A DNA stretch of 64,000 bases from Escherichia phage AV125. Each line of letters opens with the position of its first letter. Position 1 is the first letter of the stretch. Positions 2,135 through 62,113 of this stretch are shown here, in pieces. The stretch lies in the sequence record OR352955.1; one strand, written 5' to 3'. The notes beneath the pieces are model-generated. The model searched no databases. It was not told the origin of the DNA and worked only from the letters and a program-made list of their open reading frames with translations. Made by a program: the position numbers and the translations under genes.

Positions 2135-3648
2135 AATAATGTTGATAGCTTTCGCCTATGAAAAACCGACACAGAACAAAACTGAATAAATCACGGTATC
2201 GAGCTAATCGACCATTAAACGAATAACCATACATCCCAGGGCAACAGGCTGTTAGAGAGCTATTTAGAGCGGTTAAAATCGATCAACAACCAACAACAAA
2301 CCATCAAAAACACCCTTTTACCTCTTTTCTAGTGCAATGATAACCATTATCATCTATCATTGATTATCTATTCAATATAAGTGCATAACTATAATGTTGA
2401 TAATAGTTCGCAACAACTAACCAACAAACAACATAAAACAATAAGCAAACTAATCATAATCAAAGGAATAATAGCAAGATGACTGATAACGACAAACAAT
2501 CAAACCATGATGAATATTAAACAAGATAACGATAACACGACAAAACAACCAACTAACGAACAATAACAAACGAAACCATTAAAAGATCAACTATTAGCAA
2601 AATAGTGTATATTGCCATAATAGTGACTGAATGAAATCATTACAAAACGAATCATTCCAAGGATCATCATTAGCACGCTACGCCGGACACGTAGCGAGCT
2701 AATAATAAGCCAACTACACCCCAACAATCATAACCATCGGTGATGGTTATTTCTTGTTACTGCGTAGCTTGCAATAATTGCAAGCGTAATGACGCTTACA
2801 CTTATTGCGCTGGCTTATTATTAGCATTATATGTAATTACTAAGATCATAACATTAGCGCAATAACAATAATCATTGTAATAGTTACAAGATGAGATCAT
2901 TAGCAAGATGAATAATTGCACGTAGCAACATGAGCGAATAGCGACAGGTTGCATAGTGTGCACATAGTGTATAAACATACAAGAAAATAAAGGCTAATCT
3001 TTTGGGGGCGAATACTATCGCTACGCGATATGTTGAGCACCTTCTCTTAAACGTAAATAAAATCAGAATAATCTTGATTTATTTTAGTTTTTATGTTAAT
3101 AAACGTTTAAATAATAATCATTCTCATATAAATAATAGTCTGCTTGTCATGAGCGGGATCAGTTGACAATGTTCCGTCATATGATGAAGTTGCCAAACCA
3201 TTGATAAATAAGTGTTTGTGTGATTTATAATCAAGTGGCCCACCTTGTCGCTACGTTGGTATGAGCCTTGCATAAGTCATTGAATACGAATGATAATTAT
3301 TCTCATTCGTATGATATTTGGGAATTGTCGCTGCGTGGACCTGACGGCCCGAAAATTCGCGTTAAGCACTTCTTACGTATGCGCCATGATTTTTGCCATA
3401 TGATATTGATTCTATTAGATATTCTTGCCATGATTGCCATGAAACAGGGTGTCCCGAAATAATCTCTCCCCGTAGATATTTTGGGTTACTTTTTATACAA
3501 GAGTGGGGTGTCAAAAATAATCGGTATATATAGGATAATTGATAGGAATCCCCTATGATAATTCGATTGTAATTCCCTAAGATTGATCGTATGATGTTGG
3601 TGATTGATGATTGCCATGAAAGATGGCTAACGATGAGAGGAGATTGTC
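2135..3648. other. 1.5-kb ORF-free region with strand compositional skew and short direct and inverted repeats
   Basis: No plausible ORF; 2280-2620 is A/C-rich and G-poor on the plus strand; recurring ATTAGC, TATGAT(A/G)TTG, GATTGCCATGAAA and GGGTGTC-N3-AAATAATC motifs; palindromes at about 2675-2705 and 3285-3325. Confidence 0.6.
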
Positions 3649-33548: not shown

Positions 33549-34049
33549 TTAGTTGTAAGCATCTAAAGTTCCAGAAGTCAGAACTTTAATTACTCGTTCA
33601 GCACGGTTTGGCGTCTGGCTATACCATCGGCTTTTACGCATGTTTTTACCTGCTTGAGTATAATATGCATTGCTGATTAAAGTCAAGCTATTTTGAAACC
33701 CTTCAGCACCTTTTAACCCCAACTGGAAAACCATGTTGATTATTCCCAATTTACGAGTATCACTCACCTTATCATAGATTGGTGATAAGATAGCACTGTT
33801 TTTTATGTCTCTCTTCACTTTTGCAACATCGTCAGCAAAGATTTGACGGGCTTCTTTTTCTGTGATAACTCCATTAGTCTTACGACCAAGAAGATTATCT
33901 AAGATTTGAATAGCCTTTGCTTTATCTTTTATTTTAGTCAGAAGGTGTCCTATGCCGACTGTCCAATAACCAAGATGGTCTTGATAAACAGTAAGCTTCA
34001 GTCCTTCATCGACTCGTAGCATATCAAACTCATCTACTACTTTAGCCAT
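33549..34049 (-). CDS. e: T4-type lysozyme (endolysin, gene e family)
   Basis: FDMLRVDEGLKLTVYQDHLGYWTVGIGHLL and KSRWYSQTPNRAERVI align closely with T4 lysozyme (catalytic Glu/Asp/Thr positions present). Confidence 0.9.
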   Translation of the reverse strand: MAKVVDEFDMLRVDEGLKLTVYQDHLGYWTVGIGHLLTKIKDKAKAIQILDNLLGRKTNGVITEKEARQIFADDVAKVKRDIKNSAILSPIYDKVSDTRKLGIINMVFQLGLKGAEGFQNSLTLISNAYYTQAGKNMRKSRWYSQTPNRAERVIKVLTSGTLDAYN

Positions 34050-43406: not shown

Positions 43407-44405
43407 TCACCATTTAGTATGATTTGTTAAAAGTTGACGATGTTGAATCCAGCCTTTGAAATTGCCAGACCAAAACTTACCATTACGATCTACATGGGTA
43501 ATACCTGGTTCCCAAGAGTTAAAATCCCAAGGAGCATTGATAAACAAATCTTCAAAACAGTTCTCTCCATATTGTTCGCATGTTTCTTGCATTGGAGTGG
43601 CTTGATGTTCAAACGGAGAAGCATGAACCTTGCGCCCAGTCAGCAAACGACCATAGATATCTAAAGCTTTATCTTTAGTTGCATTCAAACGACGATAGCT
43701 AACCTGTGCACAACACGAAGCTGAAATAGCTTTGGCTTCTTCCAAAGTAAGCACAACAACTTCTCCAGATTCATCTTGAACATAGTATCCACCAAAAACA
43801 AAATGATCGTCACCTTCTGTGCCAATATTATCATAGAAATGGTCTACATAAGGTGTGTGCCATTGCCCTGATTTCAGCACTTCTGGTGTAGATTCTTCAT
43901 ACTCTTTGTGCATCTCTTTAGCCAAAGCTTCGATAGTAGGATCGGCTTCTTTGTCATCACGTAGCCACCAGAAATTTTCATATTCTGTTGCTGTCAGAAC
44001 TGTTTTAATTCGTTGGAAAGGTTCCAGAAGACGGTTTGCAACTTGTTTGTGGTACCCTGCCAAAGAGAATTCTTCTGCAAAACGTGCTGCACTAAGCGCG
44101 GCAAGATCCCACCACTCTTGAGCAGTATAACCTGCATCAATAAGAGCGTCATGATCAACACCTTTATCCTGCATACCAGGTTGGTTAGCCCCAAAACGAT
44201 AAGGACGAGCAGGTTGATTTCGCACCATTTCAATCAGTGTTTTAACAGGTATAGCACGGCTAGAAGCAGCATTACGACTGAACAGGCGGTGAGTCATCAA
44301 TTCTGAATGAATAATACGTGGATATTCTAGTTCAAAAGTTACAATCTCTTTTCCGTCTTCAGTGATGGAATGCGCAATAATACTAGCCGAAATCTGTTTT
44401 GTCAT
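43407..44405 (-). CDS. ThyX-like flavin-dependent thymidylate synthase
   Basis: ELMTHRLFSRNAASSRA resembles ThyX RHR-x7-S signature (first Arg replaced by Thr); 332 aa. Confidence 0.55.
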   Translation of the reverse strand: MTKQISASIIAHSITEDGKEIVTFELEYPRIIHSELMTHRLFSRNAASSRAIPVKTLIEMVRNQPARPYRFGANQPGMQDKGVDHDALIDAGYTAQEWWDLAALSAARFAEEFSLAGYHKQVANRLLEPFQRIKTVLTATEYENFWWLRDDKEADPTIEALAKEMHKEYEESTPEVLKSGQWHTPYVDHFYDNIGTEGDDHFVFGGYYVQDESGEVVVLTLEEAKAISASCCAQVSYRRLNATKDKALDIYGRLLTGRKVHASPFEHQATPMQETCEQYGENCFEDLFINAPWDFNSWEPGITHVDRNGKFWSGNFKGWIQHRQLLTNHTKW

Positions 44406-53390: not shown

Positions 53391-53795
53391 TTATTGAAGT
53401 TTAAGTGAACCACGAAGACGTTTCTCTTGCTGATCACGGATATATTGTGGAACCTCGTGAATTGAATCATTACCGTGCCTATTTTCAACAATTAAAGAGA
53501 TAACTTGATAACCAAACTCTTCAGCAAGAGCTAGATAAGGTTTAAGTTCTTTCTCTGTGGTTGAAGTATTAGAAACAATAATCTTGTTAAGATTAGATGC
53601 CATAGCATCACGAACAATATCCTGACACCATGCGTGTGCTTTACCTACATTTTCTGGCTTCCAATCGTAAACACCACTCTCTGTGTAATGATATTGATCT
53701 GCCTCACAGATAGGCCAATAACCTTCAGAAATAATTTCTGCTACTGTAGATTTACCAGCACCTGAAACGCCACGTAAAATGATAAGTTGTTTCAT
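53391..53795 (-). CDS. polynucleotide kinase-like P-loop kinase (kinase domain only)
   Basis: MKQLIILRGVSGAGKSTVAEII and IIVSNTSTTEKELKPYLALAEEFGY parallel T4 Pnk [22 protein letters not shown] and VIISDTNLNPERR. Confidence 0.65.
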   Translation of the reverse strand: MKQLIILRGVSGAGKSTVAEIISEGYWPICEADQYHYTESGVYDWKPENVGKAHAWCQDIVRDAMASNLNKIIVSNTSTTEKELKPYLALAEEFGYQVISLIVENRHGNDSIHEVPQYIRDQQEKRLRGSLKLQ

Positions 53796-54728
53796 TTATC
53801 CTCCAAAAAAGTTTTCGATTTTTTCACGTCGCTCTTGCTGATTTAAAGCAGCCCATTGAGTCTTCGTAAAATTATTTCGAATCCATTCTAACAAAGCGTA
53901 ATATTCTTCGTCAACCATTTGTTTGGCATTTTTTGGATTATCCCAAATCAGATCCCACTTTTTATCTCCACCGCGCATAAGAAACTTCTTAGTAAGGTAG
54001 TGTGGTGATTTAATTTTTAAAAGTAAGTTGAACGGATAGTTTGTTTCACGAACTACAAACCCTTCGTGTTTACAATGTTTAGACATTTCAACAACATCTG
54101 AAAACTTAACCATTGGATGAACTTCAGGACGCTTAAATTTGGTGACAGAAGCAATTCCATCAAGAGCACCTTCAGGTAACATAAAACTTGTCCCATCAGG
54201 ATTTTGAATTCTGGCACCAATTAAGTATGCACCTGGTTCTTCTTCGACAATATGCGGATCAGAAGGATCACAGATTTCAAAAAGGAAAGTTGCTTTTGCA
54301 CTCTCTGTCCATTTGATGAAATGTTCTATGTCATCACACTCTGAAACAATATGATTCTTTGCAATACTTGCAAAATCTGATTCAAGGCTTCCTGTTGTCG
54401 ATACAATAAGTTGACCTTTATATACACCTACAGAGGCCATAAAACCATTTACTTTACGAACCACATCTACAAGTTCATCCAATGGTAGATCTGTGCCATT
54501 CTCAAAACGATTAAAAATCTTAGTGAAAGGCCAAATAACAACATTGTCATCAGCATCAACAACGATTCCGCGACATTCTAGAAGACGAGAATCAATGCTC
54601 CATAAGTTATCCCAGAAAACTTTGTTCTTATACTTAAGAACAGATAGACCAGAATACTCTCCTTCTTTATATGTTTTCTTATGAACTAAACCTTTTTCAA
54701 CCAAATCGTCGCAATTAAATTTAGTCAC
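53796..54728 (-). CDS. RNA ligase-like nucleotidyltransferase
   Basis: VRKVNGFMASV (KxNG motif I as in tRNA-ligase type adenylyltransferases), HEGFVVRE (motif IV), LLLKIKSP (motif V). Confidence 0.5.
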   Translation of the reverse strand: MTKFNCDDLVEKGLVHKKTYKEGEYSGLSVLKYKNKVFWDNLWSIDSRLLECRGIVVDADDNVVIWPFTKIFNRFENGTDLPLDELVDVVRKVNGFMASVGVYKGQLIVSTTGSLESDFASIAKNHIVSECDDIEHFIKWTESAKATFLFEICDPSDPHIVEEEPGAYLIGARIQNPDGTSFMLPEGALDGIASVTKFKRPEVHPMVKFSDVVEMSKHCKHEGFVVRETNYPFNLLLKIKSPHYLTKKFLMRGGDKKWDLIWDNPKNAKQMVDEEYYALLEWIRNNFTKTQWAALNQQERREKIENFFGG

Positions 54729-54729
54729 A

Positions 54730-55281
54730 TTACTCTCCTTTGATTATTTTGTGATGGTCTACAGTCACGATATCTCGTTTACTCATCATAGAAATTATCT
54801 CATCAAAATGCAAGATTTTTCCGTGTGCATCCCAACCCACATCTAACATTTTACCATAAGCTTCATCAGGGAAAGATCCGTGGGAATGCCCGTGTAGCAT
54901 GATTGATCCACGACCTTGTTTATTCCAGGAGGCCATAGGGTAATGACTTAAGACGAAGAACAGCTTCTGATATTTCACTTCGTCATAATACACCACTTCA
55001 CCATACTCTGCAAGCACTTCTCGGTGTTTGCTGTAGTCATGGTTCCCAACACAGTAGGTGATATCTCCTTGGAGACGAGAAGCAATTTTACGGGTATCTT
55101 CTTCAGTTCCGAAACAGAAGTCGCCCAAATGCCACATCTTAACACCAGGAGTAGTAGCACATTTGTTCCATGCTTCGATCAAGGCTTCTGTCATGTGGTC
55201 CATATCTTCCCACGGACGATATTCAGGAGCAAACTCTCGAATACGTTTATGCATAAAATGCAAATCGCTTGTAATAAACAT
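54730..55281 (-). CDS. calcineurin-like metallophosphoesterase
   Basis: SDLHF, GDFCFG, GNHD, HGHSH metal-binding motifs. Confidence 0.75.
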   Translation of the reverse strand: MFITSDLHFMHKRIREFAPEYRPWEDMDHMTEALIEAWNKCATTPGVKMWHLGDFCFGTEEDTRKIASRLQGDITYCVGNHDYSKHREVLAEYGEVVYYDEVKYQKLFFVLSHYPMASWNKQGRGSIMLHGHSHGSFPDEAYGKMLDVGWDAHGKILHFDEIISMMSKRDIVTVDHHKIIKGE

Positions 55282-59399: not shown

Positions 59400-59648
59400 A
59401 TGTCTCTATTAGAAAAACACGTGTTTGAAGATGGTAACGGCAATGCAGTTTTTCTTTTCCATCCAGAAAAATACACATCTGAAAACAATGGTACAACTTC
59501 TATTGTAATCACTAAAGATGTTAAAGTTATTGATTTCTTGGCTCTGATGCGAGAGATGGATCTTGAAATTAACACTTTTAACGCAGAAGCTTTGGTTGTT
59601 GCTCTTCTGGAAAAGAAAGATAGTGAAGAAGTAGCAGAATATGCTTAA
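59400..59648 (+). CDS. hypothetical protein
   Basis: Start at ATG 59400 (RBS TAGGAGGAA); 82 aa. Confidence 0.5.
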   Translation: MSLLEKHVFEDGNGNAVFLFHPEKYTSENNGTTSIVITKDVKVIDFLALMREMDLEINTFNAEALVVALLEKKDSEEVAEYA

Positions 59649-59655
59649 ATAACTA

Positions 59656-59684
59656 TTGACAAACGTATCCTTCATATGTTAGGA
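59656..59684 (+). promoter_or_regulatory. sigma70-like promoter overlapping a 9-bp inverted repeat
   Basis: TTGACA 59656-59661; AACGTATCC ... GGATACGTT inverted repeat; TAGGAT -10-like. Confidence 0.45.
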
Positions 59685-59689
59685 TACGT

Positions 59690-59890
59690 TCATCAAGTGT
59701 GGTAACAGGGTCGTTGACTTTTGTTAAGAGGGGCTTGCACTGCGGTAGTGTTAGAGACTACTTCTTCAGAGGTTAGCTACCAAAGAGGAAAAGGAATAGT
59801 CTCGGCTCAAGAACTTTTACGCTGAAAGTTGGGCTTGGTCTTAGAGAATGTAGCGGTTCTCTACAATCGTCAGCGTCTCTGTTACCACAT
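59690..59890 (+). ncRNA. candidate structured small RNA at head of tRNA cluster
   Basis: GTGGTAACAG near 5' end pairs with CTGTTACCAC near 59881-59890, enclosing about 180 nt with internal helices; no ORF. Confidence 0.35.
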
Positions 59891-59894
59891 TTAT

Positions 59895-59966
59895 GGCCCT
59901 GTAGCTCAATGGGAGAGCTGTCGGCTCATAACCGATAGGTAGCTGGATCGAAACCAGCCAGGGCCA
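59895..59966 (+). tRNA. tRNA-Met (anticodon CAT; could also be Ile2 or initiator)
   Basis: Cloverleaf folded by hand: acceptor GGCCCTG/CAGGGCC, anticodon loop CTCATAA, T-loop ATCGAAA; CCA encoded. Confidence 0.8.
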
Positions 59967-59971
59967 CCAAA

Positions 59972-60043
59972 GTCTTTATGGTGTAATGGATAGCACAGGA
60001 GTCTTCTAAACTCTTAGTCAAGGTTCGATTCCTTGTAAAGACA
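59972..60043 (+). tRNA. tRNA-Arg (anticodon TCT)
   Basis: Acceptor GTCTTTA/TAAAGAC, anticodon loop CTTCTAA, T-arm CAAGG-TTCGATT-CCTTG; CCA encoded. Confidence 0.8.
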
Positions 60044-60242
60044 CCAGAACATTTTAACATGAATTAGCTCAAGTGATTTGAACCCACTACTGATCATGGT
60101 GGCAGAGAATGAGGCAAGTATGTCAGACATTATAAACAAAGGCCACGGTTATATTAGAAGACATAAATGCTCGAAGAGCACCGTTCGTGGAGAACGGGGG
60201 TTGGTGGAGTCACCATTCATGGTAAAATGTTTTAAAAAACTA

Positions 60243-60271
60243 TTGACAACAAACATTATTTTATGTTAGAT
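60243..60271 (+). promoter_or_regulatory. sigma70-like promoter within tRNA cluster
   Basis: TTGACA 60243-60248, 17-bp spacer, TTAGAT; 10 nt before tRNA-Ser. Confidence 0.55.
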
Positions 60272-60280
60272 TATAAGTAT

Positions 60281-60368
60281 GGAAGGGCAAATCGATGTGG
60301 CGACGAAAACGGTCTTGAAAACCGCCGAGCTTGAAAGAGCCTTGGGAGTTCGACTCTCCCTCCTTCCG
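60281..60368 (+). tRNA. tRNA-Ser (anticodon TGA), class II
   Basis: Acceptor GGAAGGG/TCCTTCC, anticodon loop CTTGAAA, long variable arm, T-arm GGGAG-TTCGACT-CTCCC; CCA encoded. Confidence 0.8.
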
Positions 60369-60376
60369 CCAGATTA

Positions 60377-60459
60377 GGTAGATTGGTGAAATGGTAGCCA
60401 CGACAGTTTGCTAAACTGTAGTCGGAAACGGCGTGTAGGTTCGAGTCCTACATCTACCG
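60377..60459 (+). tRNA. tRNA-Ser (anticodon GCT), class II
   Basis: Acceptor GGTAGAT/ATCTACC, anticodon stem ACAGT/ACTGT, loop TTGCTAA, variable arm with GAAA loop; CCA encoded. Confidence 0.8.
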
Positions 60460-60461
60460 CC

Positions 60462-60592
60462 AAGTTCTTTTTAATGTAGCTTACTTTAGCAGAGTAAATC
60501 TTCGGCAAGTGGCGGTAACCACTTTACCGATACCTCATAGTTAGTGGTGTGAACACTGGCTATTTTAAAAAGAATTTAAATATTAGTATTTA
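60462..60592 (+). ncRNA. candidate small RNA between tRNAs
   Basis: 131-nt spacer with no tRNA fold and no ORF; internal GTGG...CCAC complementarity; T4 carries small stable RNAs at the equivalent place. Confidence 0.3.
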
Positions 60593-60677
60593 GGTGAGTT
60601 AATTCCGTAGGGGTAGCGGGGCAGACTGTAAATCTGTTATCATTGCGATTCGGGTGGTTCGACTCCATCACTCACCA
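60593..60677 (+). tRNA. tRNA-Tyr (anticodon GTA), class II
   Basis: Closely parallels E. coli tRNA-Tyr: GCAGACTGTAAATCTG anticodon arm, long variable arm, acceptor GGTGAGT/ACTCACC; CCA encoded. Confidence 0.8.
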
Positions 60678-60686
60678 CCAAATTAA

Positions 60687-60769
60687 GATGAGTTGGCTGA
60701 ATGGTTTAAGCGGCGGACTGTTAATCCGTGTTCGAAAGAACAATATAGGTTCGAATCCTATACTCATCG
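60687..60769 (+). tRNA. class II-type tRNA with GTT (Asn) anticodon by loop geometry
   Basis: Perfect 7-bp acceptor GATGAGT/ACTCATC, T-arm ATAGG-TTCGAAT-CCTAT, 3-bp D-stem, 15-nt variable arm (GTTC-GAAA-GAAC), anticodon loop CTGTTAA closed by GCGGA/TCCGT. Confidence 0.5.
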
Positions 60770-60779
60770 CCAGAATTAT

Positions 60780-60856
60780 GGACTTGTAGAGTTAAGGTAA
60801 ACCCCCAGTCGCCAATAGGCTTCTGGAATTGCAGGTATCGAATCCTGCCGAGTCCC
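60780..60856 (+). pseudogene. tRNA-like element with aberrant anticodon arm
   Basis: 7-bp acceptor GGACTTG/CGAGTCC and T-arm GCAGG...TCGAAT...CCTGC present, but no canonical 5-bp/7-nt anticodon stem-loop and no CCA. Confidence 0.3.
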
Positions 60857-60862
60857 AGCATT

Positions 60863-60934
60863 GCTCCTATAGTATAATGGCTATTACAACGGTTTTGTAA
60901 TCCGTGGATCTCTGTTCGATTCAGTGTGGGAGCA
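60863..60934 (+). tRNA. tRNA-Thr (anticodon TGT)
   Basis: Acceptor GCTCCTA/TGGGAGC, anticodon loop TTTGTAA with a 4-bp stem, T-loop TTCGATT; CCA encoded. Confidence 0.65.
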
Positions 60935-60937
60935 CCA

Positions 60938-61200
60938 ACACAACATTAAGAGCACTGTGATTGATCGTCGTATCCTGTGCACAAGGTCTGCTCGAAAGAC
61001 AGTGTTCTTAGTATTGTGTTGATCACAAAAAGAGTCACCCGAAACTTGACCGGAGTAGGGTTGGATGGGGCAAAATGAGAAGCGGCTCTCCCATCGACAG
61101 CAACGAAGAATAATATTTGACTTTGGTTTTGTATTATTTTAAGTTAGCTTACCGAACGTAGGGCTAGTCACCCAACGGGATACTCGTCACTGTCCCAATC
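60938..61200 (+). ncRNA. candidate structured RNA or spacer within tRNA cluster
   Basis: About 260 nt without ORF or tRNA fold; CACTGTG ... ACAGTG and other inverted repeats. Confidence 0.25.
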
Positions 61201-61210
61201 AATAAAAGTC

Positions 61211-61240
61211 TTGACAACAAATAGTAAAATGTAGTATAGT
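61211..61240 (+). promoter_or_regulatory. sigma70-like promoter within tRNA cluster
   Basis: TTGACA 61211-61216, 18-bp spacer, TATAGT; 11 nt before tRNA-Gly. Confidence 0.55.
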
Positions 61241-61251
61241 AAATATATATG

Positions 61252-61322
61252 GCGTTCTTGGTGTAGCGGTAGCATTCCGTCCTTCCAAGTCGGCGGCACG
61301 AGTTCGATCCTCGTAGAACGCT
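61252..61322 (+). tRNA. tRNA-Gly (anticodon TCC)
   Basis: Acceptor GCGTTCT/AGAACGC, anticodon loop CTTCCAA, T-arm ACGAG-TTCGATC-CTCGT; CCA encoded; D-arm not cleanly resolved by hand. Confidence 0.65.
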
Positions 61323-61423
61323 CCAAATTATTTAATAAAGGGTTGCCAGAAAACTTTCTCTTTTACTCATGGTTTTCTCCTTCTCTCACACTTCTTCTGG
61401 TTGCCCTTCATTAAATGATTTAT

Positions 61424-61496
61424 TGGTTTGTAGTGTAGTCCGGTAGCACACGACACTTTGACTGTCGTAGGTTTGGTTCAAATCCAGACAGACCAG
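61424..61496 (+). tRNA. tRNA-Gln (anticodon TTG)
   Basis: U1-A72 acceptor TGGTTTG/CAGACCA, anticodon stem CGACA/TGTCG, loop CTTTGAC, T-loop TTCAAAT; CCA encoded. Confidence 0.8.
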
Positions 61497-61592
61497 CCAT
61501 ATAACAAAGGTGAGTCACTACCTTAAGTGTGAAGTTAAAAACGAGGAGCCGCCGAACACTTTCTTTTGCGGTGTACCTTTAGAATGTTATCA

Positions 61593-61666
61593 CGGGACGT
61601 AGCACAGCTTGGTAGTGCGCTCGCTTTGGGAGCGAGAGGTCGAGTGTTCGAATCACTCCGTCCCGA
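61593..61666 (+). tRNA. tRNA-Pro (anticodon TGG)
   Basis: C1-G72 acceptor CGGGACG/CGTCCCG as in E. coli tRNA-Pro, D-stem GCAC/GTGC, anticodon stem CTCGC/GCGAG, loop TTTGGGA; CCA encoded. Confidence 0.85.
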
Positions 61667-61675
61667 CCAATTAAA

Positions 61676-61746
61676 TGTTTCGTAGTTCAATGGTAGAACC
61701 CACGACTGATAATCGTGAGACACAAGTTCGATTCTTGTCGAAACAA
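61676..61746 (+). tRNA. tRNA-Ile (anticodon GAT)
   Basis: Acceptor TGTTTCG/CGAAACA, D-stem GTTC/GAAC, anticodon stem CACGA/TCGTG, loop CTGATAA; CCA encoded. Confidence 0.8.
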
Positions 61747-61751
61747 CCAGT

Positions 61752-61821
61752 TTCCCGTTAGACTTACAGGATAAGAGTTCCACAGCTTATTGTGATGCTG
61801 GTTCGAATCCAGCACGGGATA
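61752..61821 (+). pseudogene. tRNA-like element with non-canonical anticodon region
   Basis: Acceptor TTCCCGT/ACGGGAT (6 of 7 pairs) and perfect T-arm GCTGG-TTCGAAT-CCAGC, but the central region only forms ATAAG/CTTAT with a 10-nt loop; no CCA. Confidence 0.3.
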
Positions 61822-61827
61822 CATAAT

Positions 61828-61903
61828 AGCGGGATAGAGGAGTCTGGTCGTCCTCGCCAGTTTCATATGCTGGAGATCATCGGTTCAAATCCGATTCCCG
61901 CCT
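61828..61903 (+). tRNA. tRNA with CAT anticodon (Met or Ile2), A1-C72 acceptor mismatch
   Basis: Anticodon stem CCAGT/GCTGG, loop TTCATAT, T-arm ATCGG-TTCAAAT-CCGAT, acceptor AGCGGGA/TCCCGCC; CCA encoded. Confidence 0.65.
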
Positions 61904-62021
61904 CCAAATATCGCTTGCCAGCGGTATCTTTGAAGACCTTGCCTGGTTCCTTCTAAGATGGAGGGGTGCGACTCCTTAACGCACAATTATAATAAAGCAT
62001 TTCAACTTAACAGTATTTACT

Positions 62022-62044
62022 AGCCTCCTTATTGGAGGCTTTTT
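62022..62044 (+). terminator. rho-independent terminator ending tRNA cluster
   Basis: AGCCTCC-ttatt-GGAGGCT followed by TTTT. Confidence 0.75.
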
Positions 62045-62063
62045 GCTATCTATTGAATAAAAC

Positions 62064-62092
62064 TTGACTTATTATTTTTTATATGTTAAGAT
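62064..62092 (+). promoter_or_regulatory. sigma70-like promoter
   Basis: TTGACT 62064-62069, about 17-bp spacer, TAAGAT; upstream of 62114 gene. Confidence 0.5.
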
Positions 62093-62113
62093 AAAGTTTA
62101 GGAGGATTTTATT

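Follow-up and report, generated by a model that had tools for sequence, protein, structure and literature searches.

The transfer RNA (tRNA) clusters of bacteriophages have been known since the 1970s-80s to contain “tRNA-like stable RNAs with unknown functions.” Further examples of stable RNAs from these clusters are RNA1, RNA2, RNAI, RNAIII, and RNAIV of phage T5 and species 1 and 2 (rnaC and rnaD) of phage T4. Here we describe two tRNA-like elements, E1 and E2, in a 64,000-nucleotide stretch of the genome of Escherichia phage AV125 (sequence record OR352955.1), the whole of which we refer to as the window. It is a segment of a Phapecoctavirus genome (Stephanstirmvirinae; phAPEC8-like Escherichia coli phage) that carries a tRNA cluster, and both elements lie inside this cluster, exactly where a preliminary description had placed them (Table 1). 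A 73-nt sequence homologous to E1 is annotated in T5 (AY543070, positions 33877 to 33949) as “rna3: RNA3, putative tRNA-like RNA,” and the homolog in the record of BF23 (NC_042564) is labeled “tRNA-like RNA with unknown functions.” The annotation of RNA3 in T5 dates back about 20 years; E2, its sister kind, is unannotated. In literature searches, we found no described function for T5 RNA3 or similar elements. Our analysis leads us to conclude, with high confidence, that E1 and E2 are conserved, selected, non-decoding tRNA-like RNAs, E1 being RNA3.

Both elements keep the acceptor stem, the T arm, and a D-like arm with invariant sequence of a tRNA, and in both a plain hairpin replaces the anticodon arm; in the lineages nearest the window, the length of this hairpin and its 3- to 6-nt loop vary freely. 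Compared with the standard 7-bp acceptor stem on a 5-bp T stem, E1 has 7 + 5 bp and E2 has 6 bp plus a U·U mismatch, followed by 5 bp. The acceptor and T-arm pairings of the preliminary description thus stood, but the T loop that it gave for both elements needs correction in E1: the T loop of E2 (UUCGAAU) fits the 7-nt UUCRANY type, and the 8-nt loop of E1 (UAUCGAAU) does not. The predicted fold of E1 has a minimum free energy of −27.6 kcal/mol (z-score = −3.7). As the same description had held, a standard anticodon arm (a 5-bp stem with a 7-nt loop containing U33 and a purine at position 37) is absent from both elements; E1 instead has a 4-nt apical loop on an extended hairpin, and in E2 a 5-bp stem closes a 4-nt loop. 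An alternative loop that can be forced on E1 (GCCAAUA) has C33 and U37 and is not present in relatives. Neither element encodes CCA, again as described, although the cluster contains not 11 but 12 CCA-encoding tRNA genes, namely, 10 that ARAGORN finds with default settings plus those for tRNA-Tyr and tRNA-Ser(UGA).

Standard tRNA detection passes over both elements. ARAGORN with default settings left them uncalled, the Rfam tRNA model (RF00005; gathering score, 29 bits) matched neither even at E ≤ 10, and a scan of the cluster at that threshold assigned E1 and E2 to no Rfam family at all. At E ≤ 1, no family was found for their homologs in T5, JLBYU50, A7_1, and LTH01. None of the records that we checked, including the tRNAscan-SE-annotated ASO2A, carries a tRNA annotation at either site. 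When ARAGORN thresholds were relaxed to 80%, it drew cloverleafs for Leu(CAA) on E1, Ser(GCU) on E2, and a 4-base “anticodon” on A7_1, and we rejected these mutually inconsistent calls as artifacts. We likewise rejected the overlapping open reading frames (ORFs) as coding, as they span only 30 to 82 amino acids and overlap true tRNAs too.

On sequence evidence, E1 is the ortholog of T5/BF23 RNA3, which supports the suggestion of the preliminary description that such elements might be tRNA-like structures kept for another purpose. A blastn query made up of tRNA-Asn, E1, and tRNA-Thr matched Phapecoctavirus, Justusliebigvirus, and the T5-like Demerecviridae. Identity was 71 to 82% over the whole block in Justusliebigvirus, and in T5-like phages the match ran from tRNA-Asn into E1 at about 75%; at least 80% of the block was present in 116 of 558 matching records. 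RNA3 itself is matched by 354 records, almost exclusively from T5-like phages, and 350 of these have it at full length. In every lineage examined (the window, JLBYU50, KMB37, Lindwurm, T5, S124, KookSpook, and BF23), the element lies directly 3′ of tRNA-Asn(GUU). A covariance model built from seven T5-like sequences only, with the lineage of the window excluded, found E1 as its top match in the window (40.4 bits; E = 2.6e-10), the best true tRNA scoring 30.9 bits. When 185,579 bacterial and archaeal species genomes were scanned by pattern and the hits scored with the family model, no E1 member emerged (best score, 23.6 bits). E1 and T5/BF23 RNA3 share their position 3′ of tRNA-Asn, the D-region motif, the 8-nt T loop, and a structure with covarying stems. 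They differ in the length of the central hairpin (22 nt in E1 and 18 nt in T5 RNA3), at position 1-72 (paired in E1 and U·U in T5 RNA3), at the 3′ end (discriminator C without CCA in E1 and an encoded ACCA in T5 RNA3), and in the downstream neighbor (tRNA-Thr for E1 and an ORF for T5 RNA3).

An alignment of 12 distinct E1-family sequences showed that it is the structure of the stems, not their sequence, that has been kept. The stems have changed between T5-like phages and Stephanstirmvirinae, whereas two stretches have stayed near-invariant, a 17-nt D-like region, UAGAGUUAAG(G)UAAACC, and the 8-nt T loop, YAUCRAAU. Across the alignment, 93.6% of cells are paired, compared with 25 to 44% when the partners are slid; both sides have changed in 13 of 21 pairs, and none of 500 shuffles reached the observed covariation score. 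The acceptor stem, the T stem, and the central hairpin all covary, and RNAalifold arrived independently at these three helices, counting 13 of 16 pairs as compensatory. The hairpin differs from group to group, being 22 nt long in the window, UCUAGA-AUUU-UCUAGA in JLBYU50, and GGUAGC-CAACCA-GCUAUC in T5, and we found no conserved 7-nt anticodon loop in the family. The discriminator base also varies (C, A, or U). Compensatory stem change continued within Stephanstirmvirinae, where E1 has real tRNAs on both flanks, the next tRNA lying 6 nt away in the window and about 3 nt away in JLBYU50.

E2 defines a second such family, present in some Vequintavirinae and unannotated as a family. Homologs in the Vequintavirinae A7_1 and LTH01 are 80 to 84% identical by blastn (84% and E = 1e-11 for A7_1), and others occur in the Vequintavirinae A73 and UPEC06, in Enterobacter phage SonariX (a jumbo phage with a 248,734-bp partial genome), and in the Drexlerviridae phage phiEB49. 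An nhmmer profile of six members from outside Phapecoctavirus recovered E2 at E = 1e-15, with true tRNAs at E ≥ 0.1. Recovery at this strength by models that exclude the lineage of the window puts both E1 and E2 far outside what chance would give. The E2-family element invariably sits right behind the CCA end of a tRNA, and which tRNA this is varies by lineage: Ile in Phapecoctavirus, Tyr in Vequintavirinae, Gln in SonariX, and Arg in phiEB49. In an alignment of 11 distinct sequences, 95.9% of cells are paired, compared with 34 to 44% when the partners are slid, 8 of 20 pairs show compensatory change, and RNAalifold returned a four-helix cloverleaf that includes the D-like stem CUUA/UAAG. An H-type pseudoknot that we considered in the D region (CUUA/UAAG with GGA/UCC) gained no support either way, its positions being near-invariant and the SonariX register being off by one. 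The hairpin loop varies even among close relatives within Phapecoctavirus (CUUA, CUA, UUU, or UUUA), the hairpin is two base pairs longer in Vequintavirinae, and larger loops are retained in phiEB49 (7 nt) and SonariX (9 nt). The phiEB49 homolog is annotated as “tRNA-Val(AAC)” (JF770475, positions 43830 to 43906). It shares the D region, the T arm, and the covarying acceptor stem with E2, but it has a 4-bp stem, a 7-nt loop (UUAACAA), and ACCA, whereas E2 in the window has a 4-nt loop and no CCA. ARAGORN passes the phiEB49 sequence; its Rfam tRNA score (24.6 bits) lies below the gathering score, and its A34 is unusual. Rather than decoding valine in the normal way, it is probably a tRNA mimic or else a very atypical tRNA.

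One reading offered by the preliminary description is that of decaying tRNA pseudogenes; these would be former tRNA genes that have lost the anticodon loop and CCA and drift neutrally. The window copies do lack CCA, E2 has the U1·U72 mismatch, the anticodon-like loop of the phiEB49 homolog suggests descent from a real tRNA, and E2 gathers more substitutions than the flanking tRNAs (9 variable columns within Phapecoctavirus, against 1 in tRNA-Ile and 4 in tRNA-Met). However, none of these nine columns breaks a helix, and one turns a G·U pair into A-U; because about half of the E2 columns are paired, we estimate the chance probability of this pattern at roughly 0.002 under neutrality. The compensatory pairs in both families, with more than 93% of cells paired in each, equally run counter to drift, as do conservation across phage subfamilies and families, the near-universal full length of RNA3, and the gain of two base pairs, rather than erosion, in the Vequintavirinae hairpin. 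The closed hairpin is moreover common to lineages that are only about 70 to 84% identical. We concluded that covariation largely refutes the pseudogene reading, which we now regard as very improbable.

We treat E1 and E2 as separate families of one kind, because each family's model gives the other family's members only 17 to 28 bits, no better than it gives ordinary tRNAs, and so lends no support to a common origin; true members score 74 to 94 bits on their own family model. The D regions of the two look alike (UAGAGUUA... in E1 and UAGACUUA... in E2). Each element is single copy in the window. In both families there are relatives that encode an ACCA 3′ end (T5 RNA3, phiEB49, and SonariX), and 1-72 mismatches are frequent among the elements. 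Pattern scans of IMG/VR and metagenomes returned close relatives only (T5-like, Stephanstirmvirinae, and SonariX-like), the E2 scans giving SonariX-like and Phapecoctavirus copies only. On two metagenome contigs we also noted a short tRNA-like sequence apparently without any anticodon arm (...GUAGGCUUAAAGGCUAAGAAAGC UGUAGGUC GCGGG-UUCGAAU-CCCGC...). One copy has a CCA end, and the sequence may represent a further type of truncated tRNA mimic.

The setting of the elements suggests how they could be made. Both are embedded in tRNA runs, 2 to 7 nt from the neighboring tRNAs, and a consensus scan placed one promoter at the head of the run that holds E1 and another at the head of the run Gly-Gln-Pro-Ile-E2-Met. 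The upstream promoter matches were σ70-like only, and a scan of the cluster revealed no convincing plus-strand terminator between these promoters and position 62022, the only other plus-strand matches being the tRNA-Gln anticodon arm and the tRNA-Met D arm. Transcription from the promoters at positions 60243 and 61211 would yield E1 and E2 together with the adjoining tRNAs. RNase P would cut at the 5′ end of each element, a further RNase P cut at the 5′ end of the downstream tRNA, 6 nt on, would set its 3′ trailer, and these cuts would release pieces of about 75 to 80 nt. With the trailers trimmed, the host CCA-adding enzyme could complete the end, and the product would be a stable, L-shaped tRNA mimic without an anticodon. 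Since it would have no anticodon, such a mimic would work through the body of the tRNA (acceptor, T arm, and elbow), most likely by occupying or diverting a tRNA-binding factor, a candidate being a host tRNA-targeting defense enzyme that recognizes the acceptor, the CCA end, or the elbow. The evidence slightly favors this account as a whole, in which two conserved, non-decoding families would be excised and act through the tRNA body, with the function inferred. That E1 and E2 act in trans as mimics, and not only as processing sites, we judge to be an evenly balanced proposition.

The processing signal named in the preliminary description is a live rival, although we consider it unlikely. On this explanation, the elements act in cis, the fold does nothing but offer an RNase P site that frees the 3′ end of the upstream tRNA, and the excised piece is functionless. 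RNase P needs the acceptor/T minihelix only. Members of both families invariably follow the CCA end of a real tRNA at a distance of 1 to 7 nt. In T5, phiEB49, Vequintavirinae, and SonariX, no further tRNA-like unit separates the element from an ORF or non-tRNA spacer, and this is precisely the place at which an additional RNase P site would help; E1 and tRNA-Asn also travel as a module, in that the blastn match between T5-like phages and the window spans both. However, a genuine tRNA lies close downstream in both the window and Justusliebigvirus, which would make such a helper redundant, and yet compensatory stem change has continued there. A processing role also leaves unexplained the invariant D region, the conserved T loop, the kept hairpin, and the ACCA ends of relatives. 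We therefore favor a mimic acting in trans over a pure processing signal on three grounds: the D-region and T-loop sequences have stayed invariant while the stems changed, beyond what RNase P needs; the central hairpin has been maintained and, in Vequintavirinae, even lengthened; and compensatory evolution goes on in Stephanstirmvirinae, where the downstream tRNA makes a helper redundant. The other purpose that had been named, a recombination site, found no support, as the covarying stems imply constraint at the RNA level.

The intact acceptor/T-arm geometry, the encoded ACCA ends of relatives, and the larger loops of phiEB49 and SonariX would also suit unusual charged tRNAs, aminoacylated by a synthetase indifferent to the anticodon and serving in amino acid donation outside decoding or in unconventional decoding. 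Among synthetase determinants of this type, G3·U70 is that of AlaRS and a long variable arm is that of SerRS. The elements have neither; the discriminator of the E1 family is not conserved, 1-72 mismatches are frequent, and the 3- to 4-nt loops in the lineage of the window cannot present an anticodon. We regard charged tRNAs as a highly improbable explanation.

A more specific form of the trans-acting mimic, that E1/RNA3 and E2 are CCA-tailed, anticodon-less decoys that blunt a host tRNA-targeting immune effector or stress sensor, is a speculative proposal that we think is probably wrong as it stands. The target would be one that recognizes the acceptor, the CCA end, or the elbow and not the anticodon. 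An RNA repair-like cassette (53391 to 55281) lies on the minus strand, about 5 kb away from the tRNA cluster. It is reminiscent of T4 Pnkp/Rnl1, which repairs tRNAs cut by anticodon nucleases, and the cassette fits a phage engaged in conflict over tRNAs. T5 tRNAs neutralize the tRNA-cleaving PARIS defense system (PMC11464382). A decoy for a tRNA-directed host defense is attractive because T5 tRNAs counter PARIS, because laboratory phages can do without the T5 tRNA region, and because the RNA repair cassette is present. Were it true, it would amount to an RNA-based counterdefense that complements the nuclease-resistant tRNAs and the RNA repair cassette of the same phages.

Several observations weigh against maintained, non-decoding mimics. 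The T5 record itself calls RNA3 no more than “putative”; in the window, CCA is missing from both copies, and position 1-72 of E2 is mismatched. E2 evolves faster than the neighboring tRNAs, which implies weaker constraint than on real tRNAs. We found no conserved protein partner beside E1 or E2, including downstream. Large laboratory deletions are tolerated in the T5 tRNA region (PMC11464382, PMC12483538), so any function must be conditional. The alignments cover few lineages, so that many compensatory cells stem from few events and the number of independent events is overstated. Finally, the target of a decoy is purely conjectural.

The remainder of the locus is as follows (Table 1). Positions 59600 to 62100 match Escherichia phages vB_EcoM_3A1_SA_NWU and ESCO13 at 100% identity and phAPEC8 and about 145 further records at 95 to 99%, and the tRNA cluster spans 59895 to 61906 on the plus strand. 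In Rfam, the Ser(UGA) gene matches the tRNA-Sec model only, below threshold (60281-60367; 35.7 versus 47 bits). The tRNA-Met(CAU) gene, the last tRNA of the cluster, has an initiator-like A1·C72 mismatch and is labeled “tRNA-Pseudo-CAT” in Mt1B1_P17 and tRNA-fMet in a Vequintavirinae record. The leader and the inter-tRNA spacers at 59686-59894, 60047-60242, 60463-60592, 60938-61210, and 61326-61423 are strongly structured with paired termini (z-scores against dinucleotide shuffles of −5.1, −3.4, −3.7, −2.4, and −5.5, respectively), and the last of these has a long stem with a CU-rich loop of about 45 nt. They are similar in kind to the T5 “stable RNAs with unknown functions” (rnaI, rnaIII, rnaIV, and rna2H), although blastn detected no similarity to them. 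A close relative, vB_EcoM_01, has an extra tRNA-Pro(UGG) in the Gln-Pro spacer (positions 2406 to 2480 of the retrieved segment), where the window has a weakly structured 93-nt spacer (61500-61592); the content of the cluster is therefore fluid among near-identical phages. The cluster of JLBYU50 (Justusliebigvirus) holds unrecorded tRNA or tRNA-like sequences, one at segment positions 999 to 1080 (Rfam tRNA score for 999 to 1077, 38.6 bits) and a second, weaker one between tRNA-Met and tRNA-Ile (3329 to 3411). Several records near-identical to E. coli phages bear unlikely host labels, probably through contamination or mislabeling of the host; among them are “Pseudomonas phage PsgM04F” (a Phapecoctavirus), “Campylobacter phage B15” (99.9% identity to the window), and “Listeria phage LM 4-11-1” (a T5-like fragment of 1.5 kb).

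Table 1. Positions of E1, E2, and their parts, of neighboring tRNA genes and predicted transcription signals, and of the RNA repair-like cassette (coordinates are those of the window)
Feature	Position	Strand	Basis and remarks
E1, anticodon-less tRNA-like RNA, T5/BF23 RNA3 ortholog	60780-60856	+	Fold, T5-only model, E1-family alignment
E1 acceptor GGACUUG/CGAGUCC, 7 bp including one G·U	60780-60786 / 60849-60855	+	Fold
E1 conserved D-like region UAGAGUUAAGGUAAACC	60787-60803	+	E1-family alignment
E1 closed central hairpin CCAG..GCC-AAUA-GGC..CUGG, 22 nt	60805-60826	+	Fold
E1 T stem GCAGG/CCUGC, 5 bp	60831-60835 / 60844-60848	+	Fold
E1 T loop UAUCGAAU, 8 nt	60836-60843	+	Sequence
E1 discriminator C; no CCA, 3′ end ...C AGC	60856	+	Sequence
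E2, second anticodon-less tRNA-like RNA	61752-61821	+	Fold, nhmmer profile, E2-family alignment, blastn to A7_1 and LTH01
E2 acceptor UCCCGU/ACGGGA, 6 bp plus U1·U72 mismatch	61752-61758 / 61814-61820	+	Fold
E2 D-like stem CUUA/UAAG	61763-61766 / 61772-61775	+	E2-family alignment, RNAalifold
E2 closed hairpin CACAG-CUUA-UUGUG, 4-nt loop	61781-61794	+	Fold
E2 canonical T arm GCUGG-UUCGAAU-CCAGC	61797-61813	+	Fold
E2 discriminator A, then trailer CAUAAU; no CCA (...A CAU)	61821	+	Sequence
tRNA-Ser(UGA), CCA encoded	about 60281-60372	+	tRNAscan-SE call in ASO2A; missed by ARAGORN
tRNA-Tyr	60593-60677	+	Rfam, 39 bits; listed in ASO2A
tRNA-Asn(GUU)	60687-60772	+	CCA end 7 nt upstream of E1; ARAGORN, Rfam
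tRNA-Thr(UGU)	60863-60937	+	Begins 6 nt downstream of E1; ARAGORN, Rfam
tRNA-Ile(GAU)	61676-61749	+	CCA end 2 nt upstream of E2; ARAGORN, Rfam
tRNA-Met(CAU)	61828-61906	+	Begins 6 nt downstream of E2; ARAGORN, Rfam
Predicted σ70-like promoter, TTGACA-18-TAGATT with TG extension	60243-60272	+	Consensus scan only
Predicted σ70-like promoter, TTGACA-18-TATAGT, 11/12 matches	61211-61240	+	Consensus scan only
Predicted intrinsic terminator, end of tRNA cluster	62022-62040	+	Scan; annotated terminator also in ASO2A
P-loop kinase-like protein (AAA_33)	53391-53795	−	Flanks the RNA ligase
T4 Rnl1-family RNA ligase	53796-54728	−	PF09511, 56 bits
Metallophosphoesterase	54730-55281	−	Flanks the RNA ligase

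Modern annotation of E1 and E2 is absent from all of the Phapecoctavirus, Justusliebigvirus, and Vequintavirinae records that we examined. What is new here is their spread across unrelated families, over Demerecviridae, Stephanstirmvirinae, Vequintavirinae, Drexlerviridae, and a jumbo phage, together with the covariation evidence that structure is under selection and that the anticodon arm is deliberately non-functional. For annotation, the consequence is that the “tRNA-Val(AAC)” of phiEB49 is probably an E2-type mimic and not a decoder. As tRNA-targeting defenses (PARIS, retrons, and PrrC-like nucleases) and phage tRNA countermeasures emerge, these findings turn a curiosity into a testable object.

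Like E1 and E2, the other T5 and T4 stable RNAs are structured non-tRNA RNAs within phage tRNA operons without an assigned function, and T5 RNA1 and RNA2 are also annotated as tRNA-like. Unlike E1 and E2, they are 103 to 172 nt long and are not single cloverleaf-sized units, and we detected no sequence similarity between the two sets. The tRNA-like domains of transfer-messenger RNA (tmRNA) and of YrlA, a Y RNA-like RNA of bacteria or phages, resemble E1 and E2 in mimicking the acceptor/T-arm top half of a tRNA without an anticodon. However, E1 and E2 have neither the tag reading frame and pseudoknots of tmRNA nor the Ro-binding stem of YrlA. In phage Bas63, some of the “tRNA genes” have been suspected to be YrlA-type RNAs (PMC11482910). 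ARAGORN finds no tmRNA in our cluster, and the sole Rfam YrlA match in the window (61638-61699; 21.7 bits versus a gathering score of 69) falls on tRNA-Pro/tRNA-Ile. The eukaryotic mascRNA and MEN-beta RNAs are tRNA-like folds with a degenerate anticodon arm that are cut out of a longer transcript by tRNA-processing enzymes (RNase P and RNase Z), CCA tailed, and non-decoding. The Rfam family for them (RF01684) matched neither E1 nor E2, and the comparison is a working analogy only, not one of homology. Within that analogy, E1 and E2 would work most like excised, non-decoding tRNA mimics such as mascRNA.

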